Shown here piece after piece: positions 1 through 35,079 of a stretch of 38,095 bases of DNA. This DNA comes from an uncultured Muribaculaceae bacterium (GTDB taxonomy: Bacteria > Bacillota_I > Bacilli_A > RF39 > UBA660). The notes below the pieces were generated by a model, which worked only from the letters and a program-made list of their open reading frames with translations, did no database searches and was not told where the DNA came from. Where the stretch lies: the NCBI GenBank assembly GCA_964438315.1, contig CAYTKH010000003.1, forward strand, positions 1 to 38,095, in the 5' to 3' direction. Position numbers and translations under genes: made by a program. The first letter of the stretch is position 1. Each line of letters opens with the position of its first letter.

Positions 1-468
1 AATGATGAAGTTGAAATTATTGGTCTTAAAGATACTCAAAAATCAGTTGTTACAGGAATTGAAATGTTCCGTAAACAATTAGACTATGCAGAAGCTGGAG
101 ATAACGCTGGTATTTTACTTAGAGGTATTTCTAGAGAAGATGTTGAAAGAGGTCAAGTAATCGCTAAACCAGGAAGTGTTACTCCACATAAAAAATTCAA
201 AGCTCAAGTATATGTACTTAGCAAAGAAGAAGGTGGACGTCATACACCATTCTTCTCAAATTACCGTCCACAATTCTATTTCAGAACAACAGATGTTACA
301 GGAGTTATTGAACTTCCAGCTGGTGTTGAAATGGTAATGCCTGGAGATAATATTGAAATGACAGTTGAATTAATTGCTCCTATCGCTATTGAAAATGGAA
401 CTAAGTTCTCAATTCGTGAAGGTGGTAGAACAGTTGGTGCTGGTAACGTTTCAGAAATTATTGAATAA
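1..468 (+). CDS. tuf: Elongation factor Tu, 3' part (gene starts before window)
   Basis: Open frame from base 1 ([22 protein letters not shown]); EF-Tu motifs [26 protein letters not shown] and [11 protein letters not shown]. Confidence 0.98.
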
Positions 469-474
469 TAAATT

Positions 475-497
475 GAGATGAAATTTCATCTCTTTTT
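475..497 (+). terminator. Intrinsic terminator after tuf
   Basis: GAGATGAA-at-TTCATCTC inverted repeat followed by TTTTT. Confidence 0.75.
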
Positions 498-545
498 GTT
501 TCCAAATTTTAGACTTTATGGTAAAATATTATCAGAGGAGATAAC

Positions 546-1019
546 ATGATAGAAGAAGTAGAAAAGTATGTAAAAGAAAAACATAAGAATCAAAAAAGAA
601 AAAATGGTACGCCATATTATATTCATCCATTTTGTGTAAGAGATATTTTAAAACAAAAAGGGTATGATGAAAATCATCAATTAGTGGCATTGCTTCATGA
701 TATTTTAGAGGATACTGATGGTACAAAAGAGGAGATATTAAAACTTACAAATAACGATGTATTAAATGCAGTATTATTATTAACTAAAGAAAAAAATTAT
801 AATAATTTAGAATACATTAGTAGAATTAAAAAAAATTCTTTAGCACTTAATGTTAAATTAGCAGATCGTCTACATAATATAGTTGAATGTATATATACAG
901 ACCTCAAATTCAAAAATAAATATATAAAAGAAACGGAAGAATATTATATTGAACTAGCTAGAAAAACAGCATTTGAAGAGGATATTATAAATGCTTTAAA
1001 TTTATTAAAGGATTTTTAA
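546..1019 (+). CDS. HD-domain small alarmone hydrolase (RelA/SpoT hydrolase, Mesh1-like)
   Basis: HxxQKRKxGTPYxxHP, ALLHDILEDT, LLTK and VKLADRLHN motifs; stand-alone, 157 aa. Confidence 0.85.
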   Translation: MIEEVEKYVKEKHKNQKRKNGTPYYIHPFCVRDILKQKGYDENHQLVALLHDILEDTDGTKEEILKLTNNDVLNAVLLLTKEKNYNNLEYISRIKKNSLALNVKLADRLHNIVECIYTDLKFKNKYIKETEEYYIELARKTAFEEDIINALNLLKDF

Positions 1020-1033
1020 AAAAAGATAGGGTA

Positions 1034-2269
1034 CTATCTTTTTAATATACCTGAATTTTTGTACATAAAATACATTTTATTGTTAGTTATAAGTTCTAAA
1101 TCGCCAATATATTCTATCGCTAAAGCATTAAATTTTAATTTAAAATCATTTAGACCTTTATATGGATTATCTTTTATATTGGTTGCAGTAATTCCACCTA
1201 AGTTAAATTTCTTAAATCCCAATTTAGAATATCTTTCACATAATTTCCAAATTAATAGATGTTTAGAATTTAGTACCTTAAATCTAGTATCATATCCATC
1301 TATTAAAAGATTTACTTCATCTTTATTCTTAATAATCATCGCTGATGAAGTAACAATACCATCTGGGTATTTAGTTAATAAATTAGTTGCATTTACAAGT
1401 TGATTTTGATAAACATTAACTAGTTTATCAATTTCAATTTTTTTATTTATTAAGACCTTATTATTTTTTGTATTGTTTCTTATATCGACATTTATTTTAC
1501 TAGCTAAATAATCGTATTTCTGAAATTCTTTTTGACAATTTTGAACAAAAGATTTAGTGTCTAACTTTGTATAGAAAAATTCAACATTATTTGAACTTTC
1601 AAAATACTTATAGGTATCTTTAAAATATTTTAAATCCCTAGGATATTTCTTTTTAGTATGTAAATATAGATAATCTAAATCATCTATGTTACCTTTATAG
1701 ACACTAATTCCATTTTTTGAGGCACTCCTTATTTTAGTTCTAAATTGTTTATTAATGTTTTTAAATAGAATATAGTAAGGTGGATTTAAATCTATAATAG
1801 CCTCAAATCTTGGTTTAATAGATTCAAAAAAATTATTGTATCCTAGATGTTTATATCCTAAACTATTTAAATTAGCAAGAATATTATCATAATAATTATT
1901 TTTAGTAGTTATATTATACTTTAAATCATAGGTACTTTTTATAATATAGGGGCTAATTTTAATACCAACAATTTGATTTCTATTAAAATATTTTTTGATC
2001 TCGTCTGTATAAGTAGCTAGTAAAGAAGTATTATTATAATCGATTAAAAAACCCCTTGGACAGTATGCAAATTTGTACTTTTTATTCTTTTCTATTAAAA
2101 ACAAACCAGCAGCAACAATATTTTTATCATCATACAAACCTAAGAATATACAATCAAATCCTTGATTGCTCATAACGAAAGCATATTCGACTGTTTGATA
2201 AATAGAATTGATATAAAAACTATCACAAAAACATTTAAATTCTTCGTTTGTTAACTCCTTTAAGACCAT
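1034..2269 (-). CDS. FemABX/MurMN-family peptidoglycan bridge aminoacyltransferase
   Basis: 411 aa; YCPRGFLIDY, central coiled coil, FNLGGI...GLNDFKLKFN...EYIGDLE match the FemAB family. Confidence 0.88.
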   Translation of the reverse strand: MVLKELTNEEFKCFCDSFYINSIYQTVEYAFVMSNQGFDCIFLGLYDDKNIVAAGLFLIEKNKKYKFAYCPRGFLIDYNNTSLLATYTDEIKKYFNRNQIVGIKISPYIIKSTYDLKYNITTKNNYYDNILANLNSLGYKHLGYNNFFESIKPRFEAIIDLNPPYYILFKNINKQFRTKIRSASKNGISVYKGNIDDLDYLYLHTKKKYPRDLKYFKDTYKYFESSNNVEFFYTKLDTKSFVQNCQKEFQKYDYLASKINVDIRNNTKNNKVLINKKIEIDKLVNVYQNQLVNATNLLTKYPDGIVTSSAMIIKNKDEVNLLIDGYDTRFKVLNSKHLLIWKLCERYSKLGFKKFNLGGITATNIKDNPYKGLNDFKLKFNALAIEYIGDLELITNNKMYFMYKNSGILKR

Positions 2270-2462: not shown

Positions 2463-3494
2463 ATGACAGTAGTGTCAATGAGTTATTTACTAGAAACAGG
2501 AGTTCACTTTGGTCATCAGACTAAAAGATGGAATCCTAAGATGAAAGAGTATATCTTTACAGCAAGAGATGATATTTATATCATAGACTTGCAAAAAACT
2601 GCTAAAAAGATAGAAGAAGCATATGAAGCTTTAAATAAGATAGCAGTAGAAGGAGGAAAAGTACTATTTGTTGGAACTAGAAAACAAGCTAGTGAGGCAA
2701 TCATTGAGGAGGCTAAACGTAGTGATTCATACTATGTAGCTGAAAGATGGCTAGGTGGTACTTTAACAAACTTTAAGACGATTAGAAGAAGAGTTAAGAG
2801 ATTAGAAGAAATTGAAAGAATGGAACAAGATGGTACATTTGATTTACTACCTAAAAAAGAAGTTATTCAAATTAAGAAAGAATATAATAAACTTAATAAA
2901 ATATTATGTGGAATTCGTGATATGCATAAACTTCCAGATGCTTTATACATAGTAGATCCATCAGCTGAAGAAATTGCTATTAAGGAAGCTAGAAAGCTAA
3001 ATATTCCTGTATTTGGTATTGTAGATACAAACTGTGATCCAGATATGGTTGATTATGTAATACCTGGTAATGATGATGCAATTAGAGCAGTTAAGTTAAT
3101 AACTGGTGTTATGGCAAATGCTATTGTTTCAGCTAATGGTGGTAAAATTGTAGATTATGTTAAAGACGATGATAAAAATGAAAACATTATGGAAAGAGCT
3201 TTACAAACAGTAAAGAAGAAAGAAGATTATGTTCCTAATAATAAAAACTTCGATCGTCCAAAAAAGGAAGAATTTAAAAAAGACAGAAAAGAAGAAAAAG
3301 TAGTTAAAGAAGAAGTAAAAAAAGAAGAAAAAGCGGTTAAAGAAGAAGTAGTTAAAAAAGATAAAAAAGAAGAAGCCAAAGATATCGATTTAACTAAAAT
3401 GACAGTTTCTGAATTAAGAGACTTAGCAAAAAATAGAGAAATTAAGGGATATTCAACAATGAAGAAAACAGAACTTATTGATGCCCTAAAATAA
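2463..3494 (+). CDS. rpsB: 30S ribosomal protein S2 with C-terminal charged linker and Rho_N-like domain
   Basis: [46 protein letters not shown]; start set at ATG 2463 for spacing from GGAGGA (2457 also possible). Confidence 0.97.
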
Positions 3495-3506: not shown

Positions 3507-4382
3507 ATGATAAGTGCAAGCTTAGTAAAAGAACTAAGAGAAAAATCTGGTGCAGGTATGTTGGATTGTAAAAAAGCTCTAGAAGCTAACAATGGTGATA
3601 TCGATGCATCAATGGATTGGTTAAGAGAAAAAGGAATTTCAAAAGCCCTTAAGAAAGCTGATCGTATTGCAGCTGAAGGATTAACAGAAATTTTAATTAA
3701 AGGTAATACTGCAGCTATTGTTGAAGTAAATTCTGAAACAGACTTTGTAGCTAAAAATGATGAATTTAAGAGCTTAGTTACTACAATATTAAATGCAATT
3801 GTAGATAATAATACAGATGATACCGTTGAAAGTGTTTTAAAACTTGAAACAGATGAAGGTACTATTGAAGATTTGATTGTAGCTAAAACAGCTAAAATTG
3901 GAGAAAAATTAAGTTTTCGTCGTTTTGTTAAAGTAATGAAATCAGATAACGAAGAATTTGGTTCATACATTCATATGGGTGGTAAGATATCAGTGCTTAC
4001 TATCGTTGATGGTGCAAGTAGCGAAGTAGCTAAAGATGTAGCAATGCATGCAGCAGCTATGAGACCAATATATGTAAAACGTGAAAATGTTCCCACTGAT
4101 GTACTAGAAAAGGAAAGGGCAGTTTTAAAAGAACAAGCTATCAACGAGGGTAAACCAGCTGATATAGCAGAGAAAATGGTAGAAGGAAGAATTAGAAAAT
4201 ACTATGAAGAAGTTTGTCTAGAAGAACAACCATTTGTCAAAGATTCAGATATAAATGTTAAGACATTTGTTAGTAATAACGGTGGTACTATCGTTAATAT
4301 GGTAAGATATGAAGTTGGTGAGGGACTAGAAAAAAGAAATGAAAACTTTGCCGATGAAGTTGCAAAACAGATAAATGGATAA
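3507..4382 (+). CDS. tsf: Elongation factor Ts
   Basis: VKELREKSGAGMLDCKKAL, EVNSETDFVAKN, KIGEKL; follows rpsB. Confidence 0.98.
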   Translation: MISASLVKELREKSGAGMLDCKKALEANNGDIDASMDWLREKGISKALKKADRIAAEGLTEILIKGNTAAIVEVNSETDFVAKNDEFKSLVTTILNAIVDNNTDDTVESVLKLETDEGTIEDLIVAKTAKIGEKLSFRRFVKVMKSDNEEFGSYIHMGGKISVLTIVDGASSEVAKDVAMHAAAMRPIYVKRENVPTDVLEKERAVLKEQAINEGKPADIAEKMVEGRIRKYYEEVCLEEQPFVKDSDINVKTFVSNNGGTIVNMVRYEVGEGLEKRNENFADEVAKQING

Positions 4383-4389
4383 AAATGTT

Positions 4390-4425
4390 AAAAAGTGATA
4401 TATTCAAAATATATTGCTTTTTTTT
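4390..4425 (+). terminator. tsf intrinsic terminator; near copy at 23332-23379
   Basis: AAAAGTGATATATT-caa-AATATATTGCTTTT followed by T-run. Confidence 0.75.
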
Positions 4426-4532
4426 GTATAAAATTTAGTTACGTAAAAAAATAATATTCTCTAATAGATTTATAATTAATAGTAGTATTAGAATAGATTA
4501 ATAAAAAAATTATACGAAATGATGAAAAATTT

Positions 4533-4893
4533 AAACTTTTGACTTCAAAAAATGATCCGAACTGAGGAATATAGTGAAGGAGTATTACTCTCCTTCATAT
4601 ATTCCTTATTTTTTTGGAATAATGTTCTTTGACAATTTAATAAGAATAGTTGAATACGTTTTTAATATGTCGGTTAGACAAGCTCATTAATAAGTATGCT
4701 TGTGAATAATGCGATTAAAAATATTAAGTATAATGATACTTCTACTAAGATACTAACTATTTAATAGAGGTGTAACCTATGGAATTGATTCATAATCAAT
4801 TGTTCAACTATTAGAAAACATTTAGAAAATAAAGATATATTCATACCTAAAATTTTAAATATTAAATTCATAAAAAAGAAAGGACGTGGAAAT
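4533..4893 (+). ncRNA. Conserved structured leader, copy 1 (putative promoter, hairpin, boxA-like motif, multi-stem RNA)
   Basis: Aligns along its length with 24204-24536; hairpin 4564-4607, TGTTCTTTGACA 4623-4634, closing stem 4645-4656/4801-4812. Confidence 0.65.
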
Positions 4894-5592
4894 ATGAATG
4901 AAACAAATGTAGGGGATTTCTCTATGGAGGATATTTATTTTAAAGATGCATTTACAAAAACAGGAAATAAATTAAATTTAGAGGTGAATGATGTAACAGT
5001 AGATTCAATTATTTCCAAAAATAATAAATTTGGAATTGATAGTGAAGGAAATCTAAGTGTAAATAGCATTTCTTCAAATCAGGGATTTAATATACCGATT
5101 GGTGATTTAGTTTACCCAGTAGGATCAATCTATCTTACCGTAAATAATAGCAATCCATCTTCTTTGTTTGGAGGAAGTTGGGAGAGGATTCAAGGTAGAT
5201 TTTTACTAGGTGCAGATGAATATTATCAAACTGGAACGATGGGAGGATTTTATTCTGTTACAAGTGGAGAACCATCAAACAATGAAACAGGAGCTGCTAA
5301 TGGAAATACAGGAAGTACCACTTTAACTATCGATCAAATTCCAGGTCATGACCATCGTTCAAGAGGTTCTACTTTCATCGAAGGTGGTAGTGGTGCTGGG
5401 TCAGTCGCTACTATGAACTTTGCGGCAGGTAATTATAAAAGACATCATTATGAAACAACCTTAGAAACAGGTGGAGGACAAGGACATACACATACACTAA
5501 ATTCACATACACATACACTAAATTCACATACACATACTGTTTCAGTTATGCCTCCTTATTTAGCAGTTTCAATTTGGAAGCGAATAGCCTAA
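4894..5592 (+). CDS. Phage baseplate gp10-C-terminal / tail-collar-needle-like protein, copy 1
   Basis: YPVGSIY...NPSSLFGGSWERIQGRFLLGA...LTIDQIPGHDH...MPPYLAVSIWKRIA; paralog of 24537-25115. Confidence 0.8.
   Translation: MNETNVGDFSMEDIYFKDAFTKTGNKLNLEVNDVTVDSIISKNNKFGIDSEGNLSVNSISSNQGFNIPIGDLVYPVGSIYLTVNNSNPSSLFGGSWERIQGRFLLGADEYYQTGTMGGFYSVTSGEPSNNETGAANGNTGSTTLTIDQIPGHDHRSRGSTFIEGGSGAGSVATMNFAAGNYKRHHYETTLETGGGQGHTHTLNSHTHTLNSHTHTVSVMPPYLAVSIWKRIA
5484..5537 (+). repeat. 21-bp tandem repeat (2.6 copies) encoding HTHTLNS
   Basis: ACATACACATACACTAAATTC twice plus a partial third copy, in frame. Confidence 0.9.
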
Positions 5593-5657
5593 TTATTTAT
5601 TGAATATATAATTTATTTTCTAAATCATCTTTTAATAAAACGGAATGGAGGAGAAAA

Positions 5658-8600
5658 ATGGAACAAATTGAATTAAAAGATTTAAGAAAAACAAGAGAAA
5701 AACATTTTTTGAGAAAAGATGGGCTTATTGTAGCACAACTTTTTGATGACGATATTCATTATAAAAACGGAGAATTTTACGATGAAATTGATAATACCCT
5801 ATTAAAAGATAGTGAATATTATCATAATAAAAGTAATTCATATAAAGTTTACTTTCATGAAAATACAACAGGACTTTTAACAAAAATAGATTTTGATAAT
5901 CATTATATTTGTTATCAACTTAAAAATAGTAATTATGTACAAGCTATGATAGAAAATAACAACTCTAAACTATACAAAAATATAAAATATGAGAACATTT
6001 TAAATGGCATTGATATAAAGTACAATGTAATGCCTACAAAAGTCAAAGAAAATATTATTATAAAAAATAAGGAATCTTTAGTAGAAAAAATCAGTTTTAA
6101 TATTGAAACAGATTTAACGTTAAAGTTGAATGTTGATAAAAGTATATATGCTCTATCAAATGAAGAAATAATATTTAAAATAGATGCTCCTTACTTAATC
6201 GATATAAATGGTAAAGTTATAAATGAAGTTTCTTATAAACTTAAAAAAAATAATGATGGATATCTTTTAGAACTTATTATTGATAAGTCAATATTTGAAA
6301 ATATTGAACTTGAATATCCGATTACAATTGATCCAACAATAACCAACTATACGAGTAACAATATGTACGATACTTATATTTATCAAGGTGATACAAATGT
6401 TTCTCGCAGTAATCTACCATATTTAAAAGTTGGTGTTGAAAATGTAAACGGAACAAATGTGATTAATAGAACTTTAATAAAATTTGATTTACCAACAATA
6501 GGAACGGGAAGTCAAATTGTATATGCAGGCTTGGATTTAACAGGATATCCTATAGTAGAAGGCTCATCTGATGAAAGTGTGATTTGTGTTCATCAAATTA
6601 CCTCTGATTGGTTAGAATCAGGTGCAAATTGGAATAATATGAACGATAAATATCAATCTAGAATAGAAGCATCATTTATAGGTATAAGAAGTATTGCCGA
6701 TATTGAAGGAACTATACAACATTTGTATCACAATGAATGTGAAATTACAAACTTGGTGAAAAAATGGTATACTTCGGATCCTAATTATGGTATTATGCTA
6801 AAAGCAAATAAAGAGGTTTATAAAAATGGTATAATACCTATGTTCTTTTCAAAAAATCATGGCATTGATAATGTTGAATTAAAGCCACTACTAACGATCG
6901 TTTACAAAAATCAAAATGGTGTAGAGTCCTATATGGATTATAAGGTACAATCCTTTAGTCAAGGAAAAACATATTTGAATACTTATAATGGTAATTTAAC
7001 AAGTATTTTTGAAGTTGGATCTACTAAAACAGGAAAGATGCCAATTAATTTGAATCTTGTTTATAATACAAATGATGTTATTTTAAATAATGATTTAGGT
7101 TATGGTAAAGGTTATAATTTAAGTCTTGGACAAACTATTAAAGAAACTACAATCGATTCTATAAATTATTTGGAATATCTAGATGATGATGAAACAATCC
7201 ATTATTTCAGATTAATTGATAACATTTATAAAGATGAAGATGGTCTTGATATGACAATTGAAAAACAAGACTCTGAATGTATCTTAAAAGATAAAGATGG
7301 TAATAAAATGTTCTTTAATAAAGATGGAAATATATTTTATCTAACTAAAATTAAAGATACAAAAGAAAATATGGCAACAATTACATATAATACAAATCAT
7401 ACAATTTCTAAGGTAATAGATGCTTCATCATCAGAAATTAATATCACTTATCAAGATAATAAAATTATAATAGTAAGTCCAAATCAAACTGTAACTTTAA
7501 ATTATATTAATAATATTCTTACTAGTTTAGCAAAAAAATCTGGTGTAACTACATTTAATTATAATGATAATTTTCTAATTACGAGTATTACAGATGAAAA
7601 TGATTTAAAAATATGTTATGAATATTATGACTATGTTCCATATCGTATAAAAAAAGTGATAGAATTTGCAACTGATAATAGTGTAGGAAATTACTTCAAT
7701 GTAACTTATAATTTTAATTCAACAACAATTATTGATAATAAAAATAAAGCAGAAACCCTAACTTTTAATAATTATGGAAATGTAGAAACTATTACAAGTT
7801 TAAAAAATCATGATGATATTTTAAATGCTTATGGTAAAAATATGCAATATGGAAATGAAGGATATAGTGATGGAAGTGTTTACATTCCAATAAAAAATAA
7901 ACTTTTAAATTATGATATTCCATGTAAATATGTAAAAAATTACTTATCAAATTCTAGTTTTGAAGAAAATAATATTTTATTTACTAAAACAAGTAACGTA
8001 TCGTTATCAATATCAAATGATATATCAGTATCTGGTTTTAAATGTTTAAAAGCTATATCAACATCTATTAATCAAGTTATTAGTCAAAGTATTATTGTAC
8101 CAAAGGATAATTATTATACATTTAGTACATATATAAAAAATTCATCGCCTTTAAAAATCGTATTAAGTTATATTGATTCAAATAATCAAGAACAAGAAAA
8201 AATAGAATTTATTAAATCTAGTGAATCATTTGAAAGATATGATGTTACAACCTATTATCCAAATGATGCAACTAGTAATTTAGTAATTAAAATTGTTTTA
8301 GATGAAGCAGGTACTTATTATATAGATGATGTTCAATTAGAACAAAGTGAGGTAGCTAATTACTATAATTTATTAGATAATTCAGATTTTTCAAAAGGAA
8401 TTAGTGATTGGAGCCTTACAGTACAAGATAACTTAACAGGTTTACCTATATCTTCATCAAATGTTTTTTCAAAAGTAGATTTAAATAATGATGTAACAGC
8501 TTTAAAAATCAAAATGGATCCTGAAAATTCAACTACTGTATCCAAAACATTTAATATTAATGGAAAAGCAAAAGATACATATTATATTTCATTTTGGTAT

Positions 8601-11600
8601 AAAAATGAAGGATACCCTGCATATGATGGTGTTGGATCTGAAGTTATGAACAGTGTAATTATTACTTTCAATTATATAGATGATGAAAATGGACAGTGTG
8701 TTTTACCATCTAAACCATTTAATCCAAACGAGTTTGAATGGCAATACTTTACAGCTAAATTTGAAGCTATAAAAGATTTTGATTCGATGGAATTGTGTTT
8801 CCTACAGTATGGTGAAGCAAATGACTTATATATTACAAATATTAGTTTATTTAAAGATGTTAGAGATGTACATTATGAATATGATGAATCAGGAAATCTT
8901 ACAAGTATAAACGATTTAACAAATCAATCAACTTCATTTAAATATGATACAAATAATCAACTAATTAATATGATGAATCCAAAAGGAACTAATTTTAGTT
9001 ATGAATATAATAAAGAGATAACTGATCAAGTTTTAAATGGAATTAGTGAATCTGGTATATCTAATAAGATAAAATATGATTCTAATAATAATCCAATTCA
9101 AACTAAAATTATTAAAAATCAAACCTCTTATGAAGATATACCCGATGGATATTATAGAATAAAAGTAAAAGGTACAAATAAATATGTTAGATGTACTAAA
9201 TTAGGTGTTGTTTTAACAGAATATGATTCAAAACATAATAATTGGTATATTTTAAAAGAAAATGGTCTATATAAATTAAGACACTGTATTTCAGAAAATT
9301 TATATTTAAATGCTAATTTAAATGATATATTTGTATCTCAAAGTTACTGTTATATAAATTTTCATCTTCAAGAAAATCATCTATATTTGCTAGAAATAGG
9401 AAATAGTAATAATTATTTAAAAGTTGATGGTTCATCATTAGTTATTTCAAATCTAGAAGATAATCATGATAATTTTGAATTTTATCTAGAAAGTATAGAT
9501 AATGAAGAATTTATTGAAAGTAATGCAGAATATACATCTGATGGAAAAGTTATGACTAGTATAACTGATTCTTTATTACATAAGACTCTTTATGACATAG
9601 ATTGCGAAAGTGGACAAGTAAATTCTATTACAAATCCAAATGGTGTTATTACTACATATAGTTATAATGATAAAGATCAATTAACTTCTATATCAACAAA
9701 GGATAAAACTGTTCAATATACATATAATAATCAACAATTACTAGATAAAATTATTCAAAATAATAGACAATATAGTTTTATTTATGATAAATTTTTAAAT
9801 GTTAAACAAATAAAATTAAACAACATTCCTTTAGTAACTAATAATTATGAAGAAAATAATGGTAATTTATTATCTAGTACATATGGTAATAATCAAACAA
9901 TTTCTTTTGAATATGATGATTTTAATAGATTGAAATTAAAGACAAAAAGTGATGATACTTATAAATATATGTATGATAACAATGGTGCTTTAGTAAAGAT
10001 TTTATCAAATAATGATATTATAAAATATACTTATGATATGGCAAAAAGATTATGTCAGTATAGACTTAATGATTTTAAAATTAAATATACTTATGATGCT
10101 AATTTTAATGTTGTATCTAAAATATATGAGTTAGATGATATAAAACATGTAGTAAATTATACATTAAATAATGAAGATATGGTTACTAAGATAGCCCTTG
10201 ATGAATTAGAGATGAACTATGAATATGATAGTTTACAAAGATTAAAGAAAACAACAGGTATTATTAGTGATAGCTATTCTTATGTAACAAATGGTAAGAG
10301 AACATCTATGTTAGTAAAGAAGATGAATAACGTCTCATATGTTTACAATCGTTTAAATAGCATAACACATATCTATAATGGAGAGGTATTAGAACACAGA
10401 TATTACTATGATGATTACAATGAATTAATAAAGGAAAATGATTATGTTTTAAATCAAACGATTGTTTATGAATATGATGATTTAGGAAATATCTTATCAA
10501 AGAAGATTTATAATTTAAATACTAATACATTAATTGATGAAAACATTTATGAGTATAATAATTCAAATTGGATAGATCAATTAACAAAGTTTAATAATAC
10601 AGTAATTACTTATGATGAAATAGGAAATCCTTTAACTATTGGAAATATTCAATTAAATTGGATAAATGGTAGACAATTAAAAGAATATAATGATTCAAAT
10701 TTAAATATTGAATATAAGTATAATGTAGATGGTATTAGAACATGTAAGATAGTAAATGATATTGAAACAAAATATTATTTAGAGGGAAGAAAAATAATAT
10801 TTGAAAAGTGTGGTAATAATGTGATATACTATATGTATGATGAAGCAGGAGAAATTATTGGATTACAATATAACAATACACCTTATTACTATATAAAAAA
10901 TAATCAAAATGATATTATTGCTATAGAAGATAATAATCATTTTGTACTAGCTAAATATACCTATGATTCATGGGGAAATATTATTTCAATTAAAGATATA
11001 AATGGAGTAGATATAAGTAATAATCCAAATAATATTGCAAATATAAATCCATTTAGATATAGAAGTTATTATTATGATGTAGAAACAAAGTTATATTATT
11101 TAAATAGTAGATATTATAATCCATTATGGGGAAGATTTATAAATGCAGATGGTATAATTGGAGCGAATAAAGATATATTATCTTATAACTTATATGCATA
11201 TGTAAGTAATGATCCTATTAATAAAGTTGACTCTGATGGAGAAATGGCTTTAACACTATTCACAACCAGCATACTAGCGGTAGCTATGGCAGTGATGTCT
11301 GTAGTGGCAAGTAAGGTAATCAGTAATGCATTATCTGAAATAGACTTAACGCTTCCAGTTAAAAAACAACTTACTGTACCAGATTTAACCAAGACACATT
11401 CAAAGGATGATACAAAGGTTCAAAGTAAAGTTATTTCTAAAGTATCAGCTGTTTCAAATGTTAAAGAAAATATAACAAGTAAGGATATAACAAAGCCATG
11501 TACTCGTGCAAAAATAGAAGGAAATGATGTAGAAAGGTACGGGGAAAGACTTACTGTTAAAAAAACAGCAAGTGTTGTTATGAGTGGAAATAGTGTAATG

Positions 11601-11762
11601 TGTGATACAGAATTTGATGTATGGAGAGTTGGAAGTAAAATTTATGGAGGTATATATTATGATGGGAAACATAAAAATATGTCAAATTATTATCAGCATT
11701 ATCATCCAAATCGTTGGTCAAATTCAAAAGGAGAACATCCACATATATGGTATTATGATTAA
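5658..11762 (+). CDS. Rhs/YD-repeat polymorphic toxin (WapA-like; DNRLRE, CBM-like and ricin-like domains; His-rich C-terminal toxin)
   Basis: 2034 aa; DTYI..G...RTLIKFDLP (DNRLRE-like), NxLxNSxF CBM-like starts, many YxYD repeats, Rhs core NPFRYRSYYYD...RYYNP.WGRFINAD...NLYAYVSNDPINKVDSDG. Confidence 0.93.
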   Translation: MEQIELKDLRKTREKHFLRKDGLIVAQLFDDDIHYKNGEFYDEIDNTLLKDSEYYHNKSNSYKVYFHENTTGLLTKIDFDNHYICYQLKNSNYVQAMIENNNSKLYKNIKYENILNGIDIKYNVMPTKVKENIIIKNKESLVEKISFNIETDLTLKLNVDKSIYALSNEEIIFKIDAPYLIDINGKVINEVSYKLKKNNDGYLLELIIDKSIFENIELEYPITIDPTITNYTSNNMYDTYIYQGDTNVSRSNLPYLKVGVENVNGTNVINRTLIKFDLPTIGTGSQIVYAGLDLTGYPIVEGSSDESVICVHQITSDWLESGANWNNMNDKYQSRIEASFIGIRSIADIEGTIQHLYHNECEITNLVKKWYTSDPNYGIMLKANKEVYKNGIIPMFFSKNHGIDNVELKPLLTIVYKNQNGVESYMDYKVQSFSQGKTYLNTYNGNLTSIFEVGSTKTGKMPINLNLVYNTNDVILNNDLGYGKGYNLSLGQTIKETTIDSINYLEYLDDDETIHYFRLIDNIYKDEDGLDMTIEKQDSECILKDKDGNKMFFNKDGNIFYLTKIKDTKENMATITYNTNHTISKVIDASSSEINITYQDNKIIIVSPNQTVTLNYINNILTSLAKKSGVTTFNYNDNFLITSITDENDLKICYEYYDYVPYRIKKVIEFATDNSVGNYFNVTYNFNSTTIIDNKNKAETLTFNNYGNVETITSLKNHDDILNAYGKNMQYGNEGYSDGSVYIPIKNKLLNYDIPCKYVKNYLSNSSFEENNILFTKTSNVSLSISNDISVSGFKCLKAISTSINQVISQSIIVPKDNYYTFSTYIKNSSPLKIVLSYIDSNNQEQEKIEFIKSSESFERYDVTTYYPNDATSNLVIKIVLDEAGTYYIDDVQLEQSEVANYYNLLDNSDFSKGISDWSLTVQDNLTGLPISSSNVFSKVDLNNDVTALKIKMDPENSTTVSKTFNINGKAKDTYYISFWYKNEGYPAYDGVGSEVMNSVIITFNYIDDENGQCVLPSKPFNPNEFEWQYFTAKFEAIKDFDSMELCFLQYGEANDLYITNISLFKDVRDVHYEYDESGNLTSINDLTNQSTSFKYDTNNQLINMMNPKGTNFSYEYNKEITDQVLNGISESGISNKIKYDSNNNPIQTKIIKNQTSYEDIPDGYYRIKVKGTNKYVRCTKLGVVLTEYDSKHNNWYILKENGLYKLRHCISENLYLNANLNDIFVSQSYCYINFHLQENHLYLLEIGNSNNYLKVDGSSLVISNLEDNHDNFEFYLESIDNEEFIESNAEYTSDGKVMTSITDSLLHKTLYDIDCESGQVNSITNPNGVITTYSYNDKDQLTSISTKDKTVQYTYNNQQLLDKIIQNNRQYSFIYDKFLNVKQIKLNNIPLVTNNYEENNGNLLSSTYGNNQTISFEYDDFNRLKLKTKSDDTYKYMYDNNGALVKILSNNDIIKYTYDMAKRLCQYRLNDFKIKYTYDANFNVVSKIYELDDIKHVVNYTLNNEDMVTKIALDELEMNYEYDSLQRLKKTTGIISDSYSYVTNGKRTSMLVKKMNNVSYVYNRLNSITHIYNGEVLEHRYYYDDYNELIKENDYVLNQTIVYEYDDLGNILSKKIYNLNTNTLIDENIYEYNNSNWIDQLTKFNNTVITYDEIGNPLTIGNIQLNWINGRQLKEYNDSNLNIEYKYNVDGIRTCKIVNDIETKYYLEGRKIIFEKCGNNVIYYMYDEAGEIIGLQYNNTPYYYIKNNQNDIIAIEDNNHFVLAKYTYDSWGNIISIKDINGVDISNNPNNIANINPFRYRSYYYDVETKLYYLNSRYYNPLWGRFINADGIIGANKDILSYNLYAYVSNDPINKVDSDGEMALTLFTTSILAVAMAVMSVVASKVISNALSEIDLTLPVKKQLTVPDLTKTHSKDDTKVQSKVISKVSAVSNVKENITSKDITKPCTRAKIEGNDVERYGERLTVKKTASVVMSGNSVMCDTEFDVWRVGSKIYGGIYYDGKHKNMSNYYQHYHPNRWSNSKGEHPHIWYYD

Positions 11763-22799: not shown

Positions 22800-23315
22800 A
22801 TGAAAGAAAAACATAATAAACTTATTAATAAGTGGTTTGTTATTATAAGTATCTTATTAATTTTTATTATTTTAATAGTAGTATCTTGTTGTTATGAAAA
22901 ATCAATAAGTTTATATATGAATTTCAAAGTGATTTTTCCAGAACCTAATAAGATTGAAACAATATATTATGATAAAAAAATGGGGGCAACAACTGTTGAA
23001 AAATGGACATATAGTCCTAAAAAAATGGCAAAATTTATGAAAAATAAAGATGTAAAAAAAATAGATGTTGATAAGGTTAATCAAATATTTGAAATTTTGG
23101 TAGAAAATGTAAGTTGGTTCAAAAATTACATTGAGATTGATAAAATTTTTGATAAAAAGTTAATTAACGAATCTAATTATTATGCAGTAAAAGTGGATAC
23201 AAAAAATGGTATTACAGAGGATGTTTTTAGTGCCGATTTTTGGTATCGACCTGCTTATTTCATATTAATAGCAGATGTTGAAAATAATGAAGTTTATATC
23301 TTTGAATCTTTTTAA
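22800..23315 (+). CDS. Membrane-anchored putative immunity protein, paralog of 16146-16607
   Basis: GGAGG RBS; N-terminal TM; motif blocks shared with 16146. Confidence 0.65.
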   Translation: MKEKHNKLINKWFVIISILLIFIILIVVSCCYEKSISLYMNFKVIFPEPNKIETIYYDKKMGATTVEKWTYSPKKMAKFMKNKDVKKIDVDKVNQIFEILVENVSWFKNYIEIDKIFDKKLINESNYYAVKVDTKNGITEDVFSADFWYRPAYFILIADVENNEVYIFESF

Positions 23316-23331
23316 TTCATAAGAAAAACAT

Positions 23332-23379
23332 ATAAAAAATGTTAAAAAGTAGTATATTTAAAATATATTACTTTTTTTT
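23332..23379 (+). repeat. Near copy of the tsf stop/terminator region 4379-4425
   Basis: AAAAATGTTAAAAAGTAGTATATTTAAAATATATTACTTTTTTT vs AAAAATGTTAAAAAGTGATATATTCAAAATATATTGCTTTTTTT. Confidence 0.8.
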
Positions 23380-23680
23380 AACTTATTAAACTAAGAAAGG
23401 ATGTATTTTATAAAGCAATGATTAAAAAATATATTGTGTTAGATTTTAAATAATTAAGTAATAGTATTTAAGTACAATATTTTTGTATAACAACCATTGT
23501 AGATGTTTGGTACTTGTTTATGATAAATTTTTTTTTAGTTGTATGTTGTATCAAATATTATATTAATATTATTTTGTTTAATAATTATTACAAAATGGTA
23601 AGTAGTGCTAAATTTCTTCAAAACCTGAAGAAATTTTATATTTTCTTAAGCCTTAAAAGAACTTTAAAAAAAGCACGTTC

Positions 23681-23723
23681 ACCTCCTTTATCAATTCAAA
23701 AAAATTTGGAATTGATAGGAGGT
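23681..23723 (+). promoter_or_regulatory. Hairpin sequestering the sigma-gene ribosome binding site
   Basis: ACCTCC-tt-TATCAATTC...GAATTGATA-GGAGGT; anti-SD pairs with the SD 5 nt before the ATG. Confidence 0.6.
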
Positions 23724-24226: not shown

Positions 24227-24536
24227 TTTTAACTGAGGAATATAGTGAAGGGGATTACTCTCCTTCATATATTCCTTATTTTGTTCTTTGACAGTTGAAC
24301 AAGAATAGTTGAATACGTTCTTAATATATCGGTTAGACAAGCACTTTAACAAGTATGTTTACGAATAATATTTGATTATAAATATTAAGTAGCTGATACT
24401 TCTACTAAAATGCTAGCTATTTAATAGAGATGTAACTATGGAATTGATTCATAATCAATTGTTCAACTATTAGAAAAATTTAGAAAATATTTATGCAATA
24501 AGTACTAAATTCATAAAAAGGAAAGGACGTGGAAAT
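24204..24536 (+). ncRNA. Conserved structured leader, copy 2
   Basis: Homologous to 4533-4893; hairpin 24235-24277, TTGTTCTTTGACAGTTGAAC 24281-24300, closing stem 24304-24315/24460-24471. Confidence 0.65.
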
Positions 24537-25115
24537 ATGAATGGAACTAATTCAGGAAATTTTTCGATGGAGGATATTTATTTTAAAGATGCATTTACAA
24601 AAACAGGAGATAAATTAAATTTAGAGGTGAATGATGTAATAATAGACTCTATTATTTCCAAAAATAACAAATTCAGTTTGGATGAAGAGGGTAATTTAAT
24701 TGTAAAAACATTATCAACAACAGGTGGACTATCAAATATTACAGAAATAGTAAATTTAATATATCCTGTTGGTTGTATTTATATATCAGTAAATAATGTA
24801 AACCCATCTACTTTATTTGGGGGAACATGGGAACAAATTAAAGACAGATTTTTACTTGCTTGTGGTGATACTTATACGAGCGGTACTATTGGTGGAGAAG
24901 CAACTCATACTTTAACTATTTCTGAAATGCCTAGTCATGGTCATAAGGCAACTTATAGTCCATCGGCAGTTGGTACTGGGTGGGAGAGCTATAGAACTGG
25001 TAATAGTACTACTAGAGGATTAAATGACTATTTAAATGCCTATACTGGTGGTGGACAAGCACATAACAATATGCCACCTTATTTAGCAGTTTCTATTTGG
25101 AAAAGAATAGCTTAA
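24537..25115 (+). CDS. Phage baseplate gp10-C-terminal / needle-like protein, copy 2
   Basis: N-terminal ~55 aa nearly identical to 4894; YPVGCIY...NPSTLFGGTWEQIKDRFLL...GGEATHTLT..EMPSHGH...GGGQAHNNMPPYLAVSIWKRIA. Confidence 0.82.
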   Translation: MNGTNSGNFSMEDIYFKDAFTKTGDKLNLEVNDVIIDSIISKNNKFSLDEEGNLIVKTLSTTGGLSNITEIVNLIYPVGCIYISVNNVNPSTLFGGTWEQIKDRFLLACGDTYTSGTIGGEATHTLTISEMPSHGHKATYSPSAVGTGWESYRTGNSTTRGLNDYLNAYTGGGQAHNNMPPYLAVSIWKRIA

Positions 25116-25176
25116 TTATTTGAATGTATAATTTATTTTCTAAATCATCTTTTAATGAAATGGAATGGAGGTAAAA

Positions 25177-25479
25177 ATGTTAAATTTTATATTAAAATAT
25201 TGGATAGAAATTTTGTTTACATCTTTAACTTCGGGAATCATATATGTAACAAAGGAATATTCAGGCTTAAGAAATGGCCTTCAATCAATACTTAGAAATG
25301 AAATTGTAAGAATATATGAAACATATTCAAAATTGGGATATTGCCCAAGTTATATGAAAGAAAACGTTAGTAAAATATATGTAAGCTATCACAAGTTAAA
25401 AGGAAATGGTATGGCTACTGCTATGATTAATGAAATATATAAATTACCAAATACAAAGGAGGAAAAACATGCAAAATAA
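25177..25479 (+). CDS. Phage lysis-module holin-like protein with one N-terminal TM
   Basis: GGAGG RBS before ATG 25177; GLQSILRNEI...Y..LGYCP...YxSYHKLKGNG pattern common upstream of endolysins. Confidence 0.6.
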   Translation: MLNFILKYWIEILFTSLTSGIIYVTKEYSGLRNGLQSILRNEIVRIYETYSKLGYCPSYMKENVSKIYVSYHKLKGNGMATAMINEIYKLPNTKEEKHAK

Positions 25480-25660
25480 ACTAATAAAACAAATTTGTGA
25501 ATTATTAAAAGTAAAATCAATTATTACTCTTATATCTTTTATAGCATTTTTTAATCTATCTATGACTTCAAAATTAGATACTGATAACTTTATGTTGATA
25601 CTAGGAATGATTACAACTTATTTTTTTAATAAAGAAAGAAGTGACTCAAAAGATGAATAA
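25469..25660 (+). CDS. Small two-TM holin-like protein
   Basis: AAGGAGG RBS before ATG 25469; [10 protein letters not shown]...[11 protein letters not shown], charged tail; overlaps the endolysin start. Confidence 0.65.
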
Positions 25661-26549
25661 AAGAAGAGCAATAGATATTTCCTCTTATCAAACAAATGTA
25701 GATTATAATAAGGTTAAAAATGATGGTATAGAAATGGTTATTTTGAGAGTTGGTTTTACTGGATATGGTGTAATGAAAACGAAACAAAAAGATAAAATGT
25801 TTGAAAAACATTACAAAGGATTTAAGAATGTAGGAATACCTATTGGAGTATACTGGTATTCTTGTGCTTATACAGAAAAAGAAGCCAAAGAAGAAGCTAA
25901 AAAAGTTTTAGAATATATCAAAGAAAAAGAAATTGAATTACCTATTTTCATAGATGTCGAAGATAACCATGATACAACTAAGATAGGTAATGCAAAGCAA
26001 AATCAATATAGTTTAGGAAAAAAACAATTGACTAAAGTTGTAAATGCTTTTTGTAAAACGATTGAAGAGTCTGGATATTATGTAGGAATATATGCTAGCA
26101 CATATTGGTTAAATACAAAATTAGACATGAATGTTTTAAAGAAATATGATATTTGGGTTGCTCACTATAATGTAAATAAACCAACTTATAAAGGAAAATA
26201 TGGAGTTTGGCAGTATACTTCTAAAGGAAAAGTAAATGGAATTAATGGAAATGTAGATTTTGATTATATTTATAAAGCATATCCAGATATTATAAGAAAA
26301 AAAGGTTTAAATAATATTACAATTAAAGGTAATAATAAAGTTCAAGATTATAACCAAGTACAAAGTAATTATAAAAAACAAGATATAATTTATATTGTAA
26401 AAAAAGGGGATACTTTGAGTGGAATTGCTAAAAAATATAATACTACATACCAAAAACTCGCTGAATATAATAATATTTCCAATCCTAATTTAATTCTAAT
26501 TAATCAGATAATAAAGATTCCAAAACCAACTACTAAGAATATTATATAG
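25653..26549 (+). CDS. GH25 muramidase (endolysin) with C-terminal LysM, no signal peptide
   Basis: [41 protein letters not shown]; Lys[14 protein letters not shown]; alternative start GTG 25641. Confidence 0.92.
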
Positions 26550-27996: not shown

Positions 27997-28401
27997 ATGG
28001 AACAAAAAACAAGAAGCGAATATAGAAAAGACATAATGACAATTCTCTATCAAATAAATGTATATAAAAAAAACAAAATGCCATACAATGTTGATGACAT
28101 AATAAAAGAGATACTAAAAATCGATAACGAATTTGTCAAGGACATCGTCTATGGGGTCCAAACATATATAACTGATATCGAAAAATACGCTAACGATAAC
28201 TTAGAAGATTGGACTATTGACCGCTTAGGGTATGCAGATCAAGCTATATTACAAATGGGAATTTATGAACTAGTATATACAAATACACCTGATATCGTCT
28301 GTATTAATGAAGCTATCGAGTTAGCTAAAAGCTATAGCGATGATAGTGTAAGAAAAATGATTAATGCTGTCATGGATAAAATATTACATGATAAGGAGTA
28401 A
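27997..28401 (+). CDS. nusB: Transcription antitermination factor NusB
   Basis: W..DRL...DQAIL..GIYEL, P..V.INEAIELAK.YS, INAVMD. Confidence 0.93.
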   Translation: MEQKTRSEYRKDIMTILYQINVYKKNKMPYNVDDIIKEILKIDNEFVKDIVYGVQTYITDIEKYANDNLEDWTIDRLGYADQAILQMGIYELVYTNTPDIVCINEAIELAKSYSDDSVRKMINAVMDKILHDKE

Positions 28402-33437: not shown

Positions 33438-34487
33438 ATGAATATGTTTGGTTTAGAAATGGATCAATTGGCAAAGATAAAAGTAATTGGAGTTGGTGGT
33501 GCAGGTAATAATGCTGTAAATCGTATGGTTGAAGCTGGTATTAAAGGTGTTGAATTCATAGCGGCTAATACAGATTACCAGGTATTGGATAAATCCAAAG
33601 CCGATGTTAAAATTCAAATTGGTATGGATTTAACAAACGGACTTGGTGCAGGAGCTAATCCTAAAATAGGTAAAGAGGCAGCTTTGGAAAGTAAGGAAGA
33701 ACTTAAGTCTGCTTTAGAAGGATCTGATATGATTTTTATTACATGTGGAATGGGTGGAGGAACTGGAACAGGAGCAGCCCCAGTTGTCGCTGATATTGCA
33801 CAAGAATTAGGTGCACTTACTGTTGGTATTGTTACTAAACCATTCTCATTTGAGGGTAGTACTCGTATGGCACAAGCTTTAGAAGGTTTGGAGGAATTAA
33901 AAAAACACGTAGATACTTTAATTGTTATACCTAATGACCGTTTAAGAGAGATTATTGATAAATCGACATCCCTTATTGATTCGTTTAAAGAGGTAGATAA
34001 TGTTTTAAGACGTGGTGTACAGTCTATATCAGATTTAATTGCTGTAGCAGGATTAATTAACTTAGACTTCGCTGATGTTAAAGCTGTTATGAAAAATAAA
34101 GGTAGTGCATTAATAGGTATTGGTATGGGAACAGGTGCTGATAGAGCCAAAGAGGCTGCTAAACAAGCTGTTACTAGTCCACTTTTAGAAGCTAGTATAA
34201 GTGGAGCCACTAATGCAATTATCAATGTTACAGGAGGCTCTAATTTAACTTTGTTTGAAGTTGAGGAAGCCGCAGAAGTTATTAGAACATCTGCTAAAAC
34301 AGATATAAATACAATATTTGGTGCAGTTATAAATGAAAACCTAGAGGATGAGATTATTGTAACTGTTATCGCTACAGGATTTGATGAAGAGAAGAAAGAA
34401 AAAGTAGAAGTTGGTAGTCCAGCATCAGCTGAAGATGATGATGATGAAGGGGATATACCAGCATTCTTAAGAAAGAGAGTTTTTTAA
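33438..34487 (+). CDS. ftsZ: Cell division protein FtsZ
   Basis: [35 protein letters not shown]-terminal DIPAFLR. Confidence 0.99.
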
Positions 34488-34489
34488 AA

Positions 34490-34680
34490 CGTTGAAAAAG
34501 AGTAGTAATAATTATGTGTTAATTAGAGAAAATGTGGTAGGTGAAAACATTTTAACGAGTAATTATGAACTTACTTTGGAGTTTAAATCGTGTTATTCGC
34601 GTTAAGAAAAAAGGATAGTTTCTATTAAAGTAGGATGGTACCGCGGTTAAGCTCGCTCCTACAATTAGGAACTTTTTATT
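34490..34680 (+). promoter_or_regulatory. Leucine T-box riboswitch
   Basis: Stem I with AGAGA and GGTGAAA motifs, specifier GAA-CTT-AC (34570-34572), T-box AAGTAGGATGGTACCGCG (~34628-34645), TCCTA/TAGGA terminator plus T-run; upstream of leuS. Confidence 0.88.
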
Positions 34681-34692
34681 TTAGGAGGTATC

Positions 34693-35079
34693 ATGAAAGA
34701 AAAAGATTCAATTAAAAAATTTTATTTGAAACCAGATAAATCAGATTGGTTAGATTTAGATTGTAATGGGATAATACTATCATATAGAACCATTGTAATT
34801 AAAAAAAGTGGGAGTATAAGACCAAAGATAATATTTGATAATGATATTTATATGAAAAACATTTTAGATGTTTATCCAGTTTTTTTTGAAAACGGATTAG
34901 ATATAGATGATAATATAGAACTAATTAAATATTTTGATAAAAAAAATCATAGTATTTTTAGAAGAAAAAAAATAGAAGAATATTTAAAAAAATCAAAATA
35001 TTTATTTAAATATGATGTTGATGATTCAAAAAATAAAGATGTGATTGAAGAAAATTACCACAAGATAAAAAGTAGATAA
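34693..35079 (+). CDS. Hypothetical protein between the T-box and leuS
   Basis: 128-aa ORF with AGGAGG RBS; no recognised motif. Confidence 0.7.

Follow-up and report, generated by a model that had tools for sequence, protein, structure and literature searches.

Two copies of a shortened leader RNA, probably of the pemK/canT family, ahead of tail-fibre genes in an uncultured member of the Bacilli

Two copies of a covarying RNA structure

The window analysed here is a stretch of 38,095 nt (contig CAYTKH010000003.1, GenBank assembly GCA_964438315.1; our contig C3) from an AT-rich, small metagenome-assembled genome (MAG; 1.28 Mb, 69 % complete) of an uncultured bacterium placed by GTDB in the RF39 lineage of the Bacilli. 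It contains two copies of a 168-nt non-coding element, each lying ahead of a gene for a phage-type tail-collar protein, with an RHS-repeat gene following in the case of copy 1 and lysis genes in the case of copy 2. A preliminary description of this DNA had placed the copies at 4645–4812 and 24304–24471 and had read them as a structured RNA that could be assigned to no known family. Both positions were borne out. The lack of a family was not, as the element very probably belongs to the RNA lineage of the Rfam pemK motif, which maps onto canT, a cis-acting antiterminator of Tn916.

The two copies are 83 % identical across the surrounding 371 nt, and within the element itself 149 of 170 alignment columns are identical. 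The linkers named in the preliminary description are conserved between the copies, and the indels are mostly outside the element (11- and 15-nt indels outside, only four gap columns inside). The adjacent protein was also correctly described as diverged in the middle of its gene, with 48 % identity overall, a near-identical first 55 residues and a gapped middle. The predicted folding energy was lower than that of shuffled sequences for both copy 1 (z −2.66, matched by 0 of 200 shuffles) and copy 2 (z −2.89, matched by 2 of 200).

The proposed helices fared unequally when relatives were compared. The 12-bp closing stem AATAGTTGAATA/TGTTCAACTATT, here called P1, and the invariant hairpin AATTGATT-cat-AATCAATT, here called P7, are both present, and in relatives compensatory changes preserve both helices. 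As T4801 is claimed by the two alike, either P1 or P7 must be one pair shorter than described. The inner stem ACAAGC (4678–4683)/GCTTGT (4698–4703) is complementary in copy 1 but weaker in copy 2 (AAGCA/TGTTT) and corresponds to no helix of the wider family. The stem formed by TATTAAGTA (4722–4730) and TATTTAATA (4758–4766) is likewise complementary, with 9 bp in copy 1 and 13 bp in copy 2, but it competes with the family helix P2, formed by TTTAATAT and ATATTAAG. As P2 covaries in 51 relatives and is improved in copy 2, the TATTAAGTA/TATTTAATA stem is probably mis-partnered, or it may be an alternative fold.

Differences between the copies are concentrated outside the retained helices. In P1, P2 and P7 together 57 of 58 columns are identical, compared with 92 of 112 in the rest of the element (Fisher one-sided p 0.0011), and the sole change, T4661 in copy 1 to C in copy 2, converts a U.G pair of P2 to C-G. 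That these helices have been spared since the duplication argues for continued function.

Homologues were collected via the sigma-like gene adjacent to copy 2, as had been suggested, and examined for covariation. The 179 relatives of the encoded protein in species genomes reduced to 80 loci, of which 77 had enough downstream DNA. Three motif filters (box, core strand and the P6 hairpin) were passed by 52 of these, and 51 distinct elements were aligned with MAFFT using sequence only; the ten-helix structure was read from one member, which favours that structure somewhat. Across the 54 pairs of the ten helices 93.9 % of cells were paired, compared with 80.6 % in shuffled alignments (0 of 500 reached the observed value), 47 of the 54 pairs were changed on both sides (28.8 in shuffles) and the covariation score was 0.419 (0.186 in shuffles). 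Doubly changed pairs were found in every helix, and sliding the 3′ partner by 1–3 columns left only 29–45 % of cells paired; even allowing for the advantage given to the structure, the values of both controls are far from those observed. Arms from the same locus also fitted one another better than arms from different loci, with median helix scores of 21 and 12, respectively, for P1 and 18.5 and 11 for P2; only 2.0 % (P1) and 1.7 % (P2) of the cross-locus pairs reached the within-locus median. A full compensatory swap is seen in P3 of two Tn916-type leaders, GCTGA/TCAGT in L034 and ACTAAC/GTTAGT in L037.

The full unit is 200–300 nt long. The window copies can be compared with L064, a MAG contig with a sigma-like protein 57 % identical to that of the window, in which the P1 arms and the downstream gene are the same and no helix of the set is missing. 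What remains in the window copies is the box, P1, P2 and P7, together with P6 in a shortened form. In copy 1, the core consists of all ten bases of the conserved strand AUAAUGAUAC (4730–4739), a single irregular hairpin that replaces two, a short P6 with the sequence AGG-UGUAA-CCU (4768–4778) and AUGG. In copy 2, AUAAU has been replaced and only GAUAC is left of AUAAUGAUAC.

Relationship to the pemK motif and to canT

When the window was scanned against Rfam at gathering thresholds, the sole match was a T-box. In a permissive scan copy 1 matched the pemK motif (RF02913) with 27.4 bits (E 0.0058), which is below the gathering cut-off of 34.8 bits, and copy 2 did not match RF02913 at E≤0.1. These two results weigh against assignment of the copies to the family, as does the junction: the three hairpins of the pemK motif, ending in the GGUGAAAUUCC hairpin, were not found in either copy, where the single irregular hairpin and the shortened P6 stand instead.

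The relatives support the assignment. A third, full-length but diverged copy was found in the same genome on contig C46, between a sigma-like gene and a small open reading frame (ORF) followed by a PemK/MazF gene and a serine recombinase, and its middle scores 62.6 bits on RF02913. Of 101 relatives 11 contained the motif, as did 12 of the 151 genomes sampled across the phylum; together these amount to 26 distinct loci (25 in other genomes), with scores in relatives of 62.6, 52.4, 48.5, 48.4, 48.2, 47.1 and 43.8 bits. One of them (G020, 47.1 bits) stands before a 417-aa tail fibre. Within the sub-lineage that includes the window copies the score declines step by step, from 52–44 bits for L141, L094, L071, L110 and L088, the last four of which are associated with tail fibres, to 32.8 for L098 and 31.8 for L065, and to no match for L064 and copy 2. 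The match to a known Rfam family that, according to the preliminary description, would remove novelty was thus obtained for the full-length relatives (62.6, 52.4, 48 and 47 bits), only weakly for copy 1 and not at all for copy 2. An nhmmer profile built from 49 other elements found exactly three places in the whole genome, namely the C46 element and the two window copies, with E values of 6.4e-15 for copy 2 and 1.4e-9 for copy 1.

A common layout was present in 28 of 28 elements, comprising the 26 loci and the two window copies. The conserved box, (G)TTCTTTGAMAAYTGAATA, comes first and is followed by an arm of variable sequence with RAUAC at its end. Next come a 5′ domain, the core with AUAAUGAUAC and a small hairpin, and the layout is completed by a second arm complementary to the first. 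Copy 1 shares with RF02913 the strand AUAAUGAUAC, the hairpin P6 and the final AUGR. The Rfam model is limited to 61 nt and three hairpins, whereas the real unit has ten helices, with the box and the closing stem lying outside the model. The best explanation of these sequence comparisons is that each window copy is a shortened, divergent member of a family whose core is the 61-nt pemK motif and whose full 200–300-nt form is the canT of Tn916-like elements. The element was not matched in phage records by blastn, a scan of viral contigs with a reduced-core pattern gave 0 matches, and a DNA search of 61 relatives gave short AT-rich matches only, G020 excepted.

The connection with canT was made through locus L037, which is Tn916; over 601 nt it shows 100 % identity to plasmid copies that carry the annotation 'excisionase from transposon Tn916', and its ORFs correspond to Int, Xis, an antisense orf5, Orf8 and Orf7. 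According to the main text of Wirachman and Grossman 2024 (PMC11658703), canT, in the orf8-xis region, is a cis-acting, orientation-specific, processive antiterminator that acts on heterologous terminators from a foreign promoter in Bacillus subtilis without other Tn916 genes, and some shorter canT fragments retain activity. When the published mutations were placed on the element (Table 1), the inactivating change canT(S3) was found to alter the first three bases (ATA, nt 283–285) of the motif's AUAAUGAUAC, and canT(delta162) to delete the entire pemK motif. In our copy nt 283–285 are in frame with orf5 Tyr65, the residue the authors intended to alter, and codon 30 is Ala, in agreement with their text. 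In the same text, structure analysis of canT was not pursued, and pemK, Rfam, boxA and NusB are all absent.

The genetic order is also shared. According to a 2026 preprint from the same laboratory (bioRxiv 10.64898/2026.10.01.756105), the canT-containing transcript is driven by a split sigma factor made up of Orf7 and Orf8, and sig7-sig8 lies upstream of canT. This order of sigma gene and then RNA matches that of the family, in which 17 of 24 upstream ORFs contain Sigma70_r4_2. From the box through P1, P2 and the core to P7, the window copies follow the arrangement of the canT element, which points to common descent, and they occupy the same operon position, after a sigma-region-4 gene and before the cargo. 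They differ from canT in being about 100 nt shorter, without the P3 3′ strand, P4, P5 and P5b, all of which L064 retains. Further differences are that the sigma-like protein of the window shares only region 4 with Orf7 (E 0.001) and has no Orf8 partner, that a terminator-like hairpin precedes the box, and that the cargo is made up of tail-fibre, RHS and lysis genes rather than the xis-int-conjugation genes of Tn916.

The pemK motif is reportedly one of those described in a survey of 224 motifs. The main text of the 224-motif paper (PMC5737381) does not mention it. None of the papers searched was found to connect the pemK motif with canT or antitermination, or to report a boxA in such elements; the supplements of the 224-motif survey may say more on context.

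Other antiterminator RNAs were compared. The conAn2 RNA of plasmid pLS20 is likewise a large cis-acting antiterminator RNA that heads a mobile-element operon beside a small protein gene, but as described in the text of PMC8191782 it needs the protein ConAn1 for processivity. In pLS20 (NC_015148; L143) the conAn2 region at 3093–3372 is closed by a perfect 20-bp stem, CAGGATTCACACGTTTATCA/TGATAAACGTGTGAATCCTG, around about 220 nt, and the segment 1900–3700 contained no Rfam match at E≤1 and no boxA-like box. It thus resembles the canT/pemK unit in being a 'closed package'. Judged by sequence, conAn2 is an unrelated analogue of that unit. The put RNA of phage HK022 and the EAR of the Bacillus eps operon are, according to the main text of PMC11658703, protein-independent cis-acting RNAs that make polymerase terminator-resistant; neither was matched in the Rfam scans and neither has any sequence relation to the window copies.

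The box and the neighbouring genes

The box that begins the layout was matched at 14–19 of its 19 positions by 25 of the 28 elements, compared with at most 13 in 55 control windows. As no rRNA operon is assembled in the genome under study, complete genomes of the same class were used for comparison, and their 16S leaders and 16S–23S spacers carry GATCTTTGAAAACTAAACA, GATCTTTGACAACTGAATA and GTTCTTTGAAAACTGAATA. A 16-nt pattern of the box found 19 sites in one of these genomes (G046), 16 of them in its eight rRNA operons, one at a pemK element and two elsewhere (1170976 and 1293109) with no element behind them. All four matches in G047 and all five in G038 were rrn sites, and the reversed pattern gave 1, 0, 0, 0 and 0 matches. 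In sequence, the box of the element matches the rRNA-operon boxA of the same lineage.

In the antitermination of rRNA operons and at lambda nut sites, boxA acts via NusB, NusE, NusA and NusG. Binding of NusB and NusE by the box of the element is predicted by analogy. As the P1 arm immediately after it covaries, the box is probably transcribed ahead of the structured RNA. In both the element and the 16S–23S spacer the box directly precedes a long-range stem, of which the 5′ arm comes next and which encloses a structured RNA; in G047 the 5′ strand of the 23S stalk is made up of the spacer box together with the bases after it. The spacer box itself pairs with the far strand, whereas pairing in the element is confined to the arm that follows. 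The element also differs in that the canT reporter described in the main text of PMC11658703 remains active with a truncated box. The box of copy 2 is itself complementary in its 3′ part, AGTTGAACAA (24290–24301), to the P1 3′ arm (24460–24471), giving that arm two possible partners, an arrangement that recalls the rRNA spacer. A nusB gene is found inside the window at 28024–28386, 3.5 kb downstream of copy 2.

The sigma-like protein encoded upstream of copy 2 has sigma region 4 only; NCBIfam sigma models cover only residues ~50–159 and score below their cut-offs. It has no relative in viral contigs, and in phage records only three weak matches were found. No sigma ORF lies upstream of copy 1, where the gene itself is missing and only a remnant of its 3′ end is retained, so that copy 1 resembles copy 2 with the sigma gene deleted. 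The position after a sigma-region-4 regulator and before mobile-element cargo is therefore seen in full only in copy 2. The ribosome-binding site of the sigma gene is included in a hairpin, and in L003 (~2150–2200, minus strand) and L004 (~2205–2250, minus strand) the corresponding AGGAGG pairs with an ACCTCC-like stretch, with an intervening stem that varies by locus and stays complementary. This looks like translational masking of the sigma-like gene, the Tn916 counterpart of which is toxic when overexpressed.

A terminator-like hairpin precedes the box in both copies, and a conserved AGTGAGGAA...GTGAgAGG hairpin is found at the same place, between the sigma gene and the box, in sigma-family loci. 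In the region ahead of the box (4565–4623 in the window, the last ~100 nt before the box in L066–L142) the 5′ arm of this hairpin has a conserved sequence, AGTGAGGAAACAGGTGAGAGGG. Part of the arm recurs downstream of the U-run in many loci (GGAGCAGG; GGAAT in copy 1), and this repeat can pair with the 3′ arm of the hairpin. With these three parts, a terminator might form or, alternatively, a 5′ hairpin adjoining boxA. Farther upstream, a terminator-like block after tsf has a twin that follows the ORF at 22800–23315, and the two blocks may mark the left edge of a duplicated or mobile unit. That ORF was considered as a relative of EF-Ts and proved unrelated on comparison.

Both copies precede intact ORFs with a conserved ribosome-binding site. 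Of 74 sigma-family loci with enough sequence, 41 have PemK/MazF among the cargo, 28 a serine recombinase, eight tail fibres and three a lysin. In the window, the RHS-repeat gene is followed by ORFs without a family match that might be immunity genes. The T-box leader (105.4 bits) lies at 34483–34663, upstream of the ORFs at 34693–35079 and 35091–37907.

Table 1. Features of the two copies and their surroundings in the window, with the corresponding features of Tn916 (nt counted from the orf8 stop)
Feature	Position	Strand	Details
Terminator-like block after tsf	4381–4428	+	~47 nt; near-identical to 23336–23383
Sigma-region-4 gene, remnant of 3′ end	4480–4556	+	59/81 columns identical to 3′ end of copy 2 sigma gene
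Long hairpin with U-run, intrinsic-terminator-like, copy 1	4565–4615	+	Terminator scan 4574–4598; 94 % identical to copy 2
Box, copy 1, GTTCTTTGACAATTTAATA	4624–4642	+	16/19 positions of box consensus
P1 5′ arm (closing stem), AATAGTTGAATA	4645–4656	+	Pairs with 4801–4812; 7/10 P1 pairs doubly changed in 51 relatives
P2 5′ strand, TTTAATAT	4661–4668	+	Pairs with 4721–4728; all P2 pairs covary
Local hairpin ACAAGC/GCTTGT	4678–4703	+	At the place of the family P3 5′ strand; P3 3′ strand and P4 deleted
P2 3′ strand, ATATTAAG	4721–4728	+	Also half of the alternative stem in the preliminary description
Reduced pemK-type core	4730–4782	+	RF02913 27.4 bits; compared with L064 and L065 in alignment
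P7 hairpin, AATTGATT-cat-AATCAATT	4783–4801	+	Identical in both copies; 7/7 pairs doubly changed in relatives
P1 3′ arm, TGTTCAACTATT	4801–4812	+	Partner of 4645–4656
Cargo, copy 1	4894–11762	+	Gp10_C tail-collar 4894–5592; 2034-aa RHS-repeat protein 5658–11762 (Pfam)
Hairpin over ribosome-binding site of sigma gene	23681–23723	+	AGGAGGT pairs with ACCTCCT; equivalents in L003 and L004
Sigma-region-4-only protein, 165 aa	23729–24226	+	Pfam Sigma70_r4_2 at residues 102–145
Terminator-like hairpin with U-run, copy 2	24236–24283	+	Terminator scan 24245–24268
Box, copy 2, GTTCTTTGACAGTTGAACA	24283–24301	+	15/19 positions of box consensus
Element, copy 2	24304–24471	+	P1 24304–24315/24460–24471; P2 24320–24327/24382–24389; P7 24442–24460
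Cargo, copy 2	24537–26549	+	Gp10_C tail-collar, two small phage-type ORFs, GH25-LysM lysin (Pfam and PHROGs)
Tn916 box	nt 121–139		This work
Active 452-bp canT fragment	nt 126–577		PMC11658703, main text
Tn916 P1 arms	nt 142–153/398–409		This work
canT(delta162)	nt 229–390		PMC11658703, main text
canT(S3), ATA to TGC	from nt 283		PMC11658703, main text
Rfam pemK match in Tn916	nt 283–383		This work

Possible function of the leaders

By homology with canT, the leader would be transcribed together with its operon. The rRNA-type boxA at the 5′ side and the folded RNA (P1, P2, the AUAAUGAUAC junction, P6 and P7) would then stay with the elongating polymerase and render it resistant to termination, so that the long operon would be expressed only from transcripts carrying the leader. 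The genes driven in this way would be those for the tail-collar protein and the RHS toxin in the case of copy 1, and those for the tail-collar protein and lysis in the case of copy 2. Taken as a whole, comparative evidence makes it likely, though by no means certain, that the window copies are antiterminator leaders for a tail-fibre/RHS operon and a tail-fibre/lysis operon, possibly weakened ones, and that in their cut-down form they may still work.

Several observations count against this. In addition to the helices missing relative to L064, the AUA is gone from copy 2, and in Tn916 canT is inactivated when these three bases are replaced (PMC11658703, main text). The active 452-bp canT fragment of the same study starts five bases inside the box, so a complete boxA is not needed in that reporter. 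A simple scan found no intrinsic terminator on the plus strand downstream of either copy; the sole predicted terminators are just upstream of the box, where polymerase may either read through the hairpin or start inside it. The closest relative by sigma protein, L063 (65 % identical), has a still more eroded leader, making decay within the sub-lineage plausible. A search of sequencing runs found no RNA run for this organism.

Many of the same observations would fit decayed relics, that is, canT/pemK-type descendants that no longer antiterminate and in which the helices are kept only through a young duplication or gene conversion. This we regard as a real but distinctly less probable alternative. 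Internal deletions have taken four of the ten family helices, copy 2 is without the AUA that canT needs, L063 is further eroded, copy 1 has lost its sigma gene and no downstream terminators are predicted. However, the differences between the copies avoid the helices and the lone helix change is compensating, both copies still precede intact ORFs with their ribosome-binding sites, and some shorter canT fragments remain active according to the main text of PMC11658703.

It is improbable that the element is a sensing leader instead of an autonomous antiterminator, whether riboswitch-like, targeted by the PemK/MazF nuclease or bound as RNA by the sigma-like protein. The highly conserved junction nucleotides (AUAAUGAUAC and GGUGAAAUUCC) and the PemK/MazF gene downstream in 41 of 74 sigma-family loci would be in keeping with such a role. 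On the other hand, canT is reported to be active in B. subtilis without any other Tn916 gene (PMC11658703, main text), the window copies have no pemK gene downstream, no Rfam riboswitch model matched the element and no alternative terminator/antiterminator pair follows it. Of the kinds of cis-acting RNA put forward in the preliminary description, the antiterminator is supported by homology and nothing supports the riboswitch.

The box could also be viewed as DNA, with TTGACA as the −35 and RAATAC, 17–18 nt further on, as the −10 of a promoter read by the neighbouring sigma-like protein, so that the RNA would start after the P1 5′ arm. The TTGAMA-RAATAC spacing is a constant 17–18 nt in 14 sequences, and a sigma-region-4 gene lies upstream in 17 of 24 loci. 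Against this, the P1 5′ arm, which would be the spacer, covaries with an arm 150–270 nt downstream, which is sensible only if both arms are in one nucleic-acid strand. In addition, a sigma-70-type scan lists no promoter starting at the TTGACA of the box (4631 in copy 1, 24289 in copy 2), the same box is part of the transcribed leader RNA in rRNA operons, and canT works from a foreign promoter and in one orientation only (PMC11658703, main text). The promoter is thus a very unlikely explanation.

Least credible of all is an invertible DNA switch in which a recombinase flips the segment flanked by the 12-bp inverted repeat, since, although the repeat flanks ~145 bp and serine recombinases are found near many family members, its sequence varies by locus with complementarity kept, eight to nine further internal helices covary as expected of a folded strand, and contigs of four DNA runs show the reference orientation only and no strand-switch joints (weak evidence, as contigs drop rare forms). 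Unitigs of the DNA runs break at sequence common to both copies.

Beyond the antiterminator reading, we put forward more tentatively, as a possibility we rate below even chance, that canT/pemK RNAs mimic the rRNA operon. A boxA derived from the spacer would load host NusB/NusE, the arm following it would close a ten-helix RNA in the manner of the 23S stalk and, together with the sigma-region-4 gene and an insulating terminator, the unit would form a portable expression driver, of which the window version may be the smallest working core. The involvement of boxA and Nus factors as cofactors differs from the suggestion in the main text of PMC11658703 that the RNA alone binds polymerase.

In the papers searched the pemK motif had no function, and canT had a function but, according to the main text of its authors, no reliable structure; joining the two supplies both. 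The covariation-backed ten-helix model can be overlaid on the published canT deletions, and S3 is seen to strike the invariant junction strand. The window copies, as a naturally trimmed version, could help define the minimal element. The cargo driven by one type of leader would vary widely, with tail-fibre/RHS-toxin and lysis cassettes among it in gut Bacilli with small genomes. If the proposal is true, the portable driver serves integrative elements, toxin-antitoxin/recombinase modules and tail-fibre cassettes in many Bacillota, a relative of the sigma gene alone being present in 179 species genomes.

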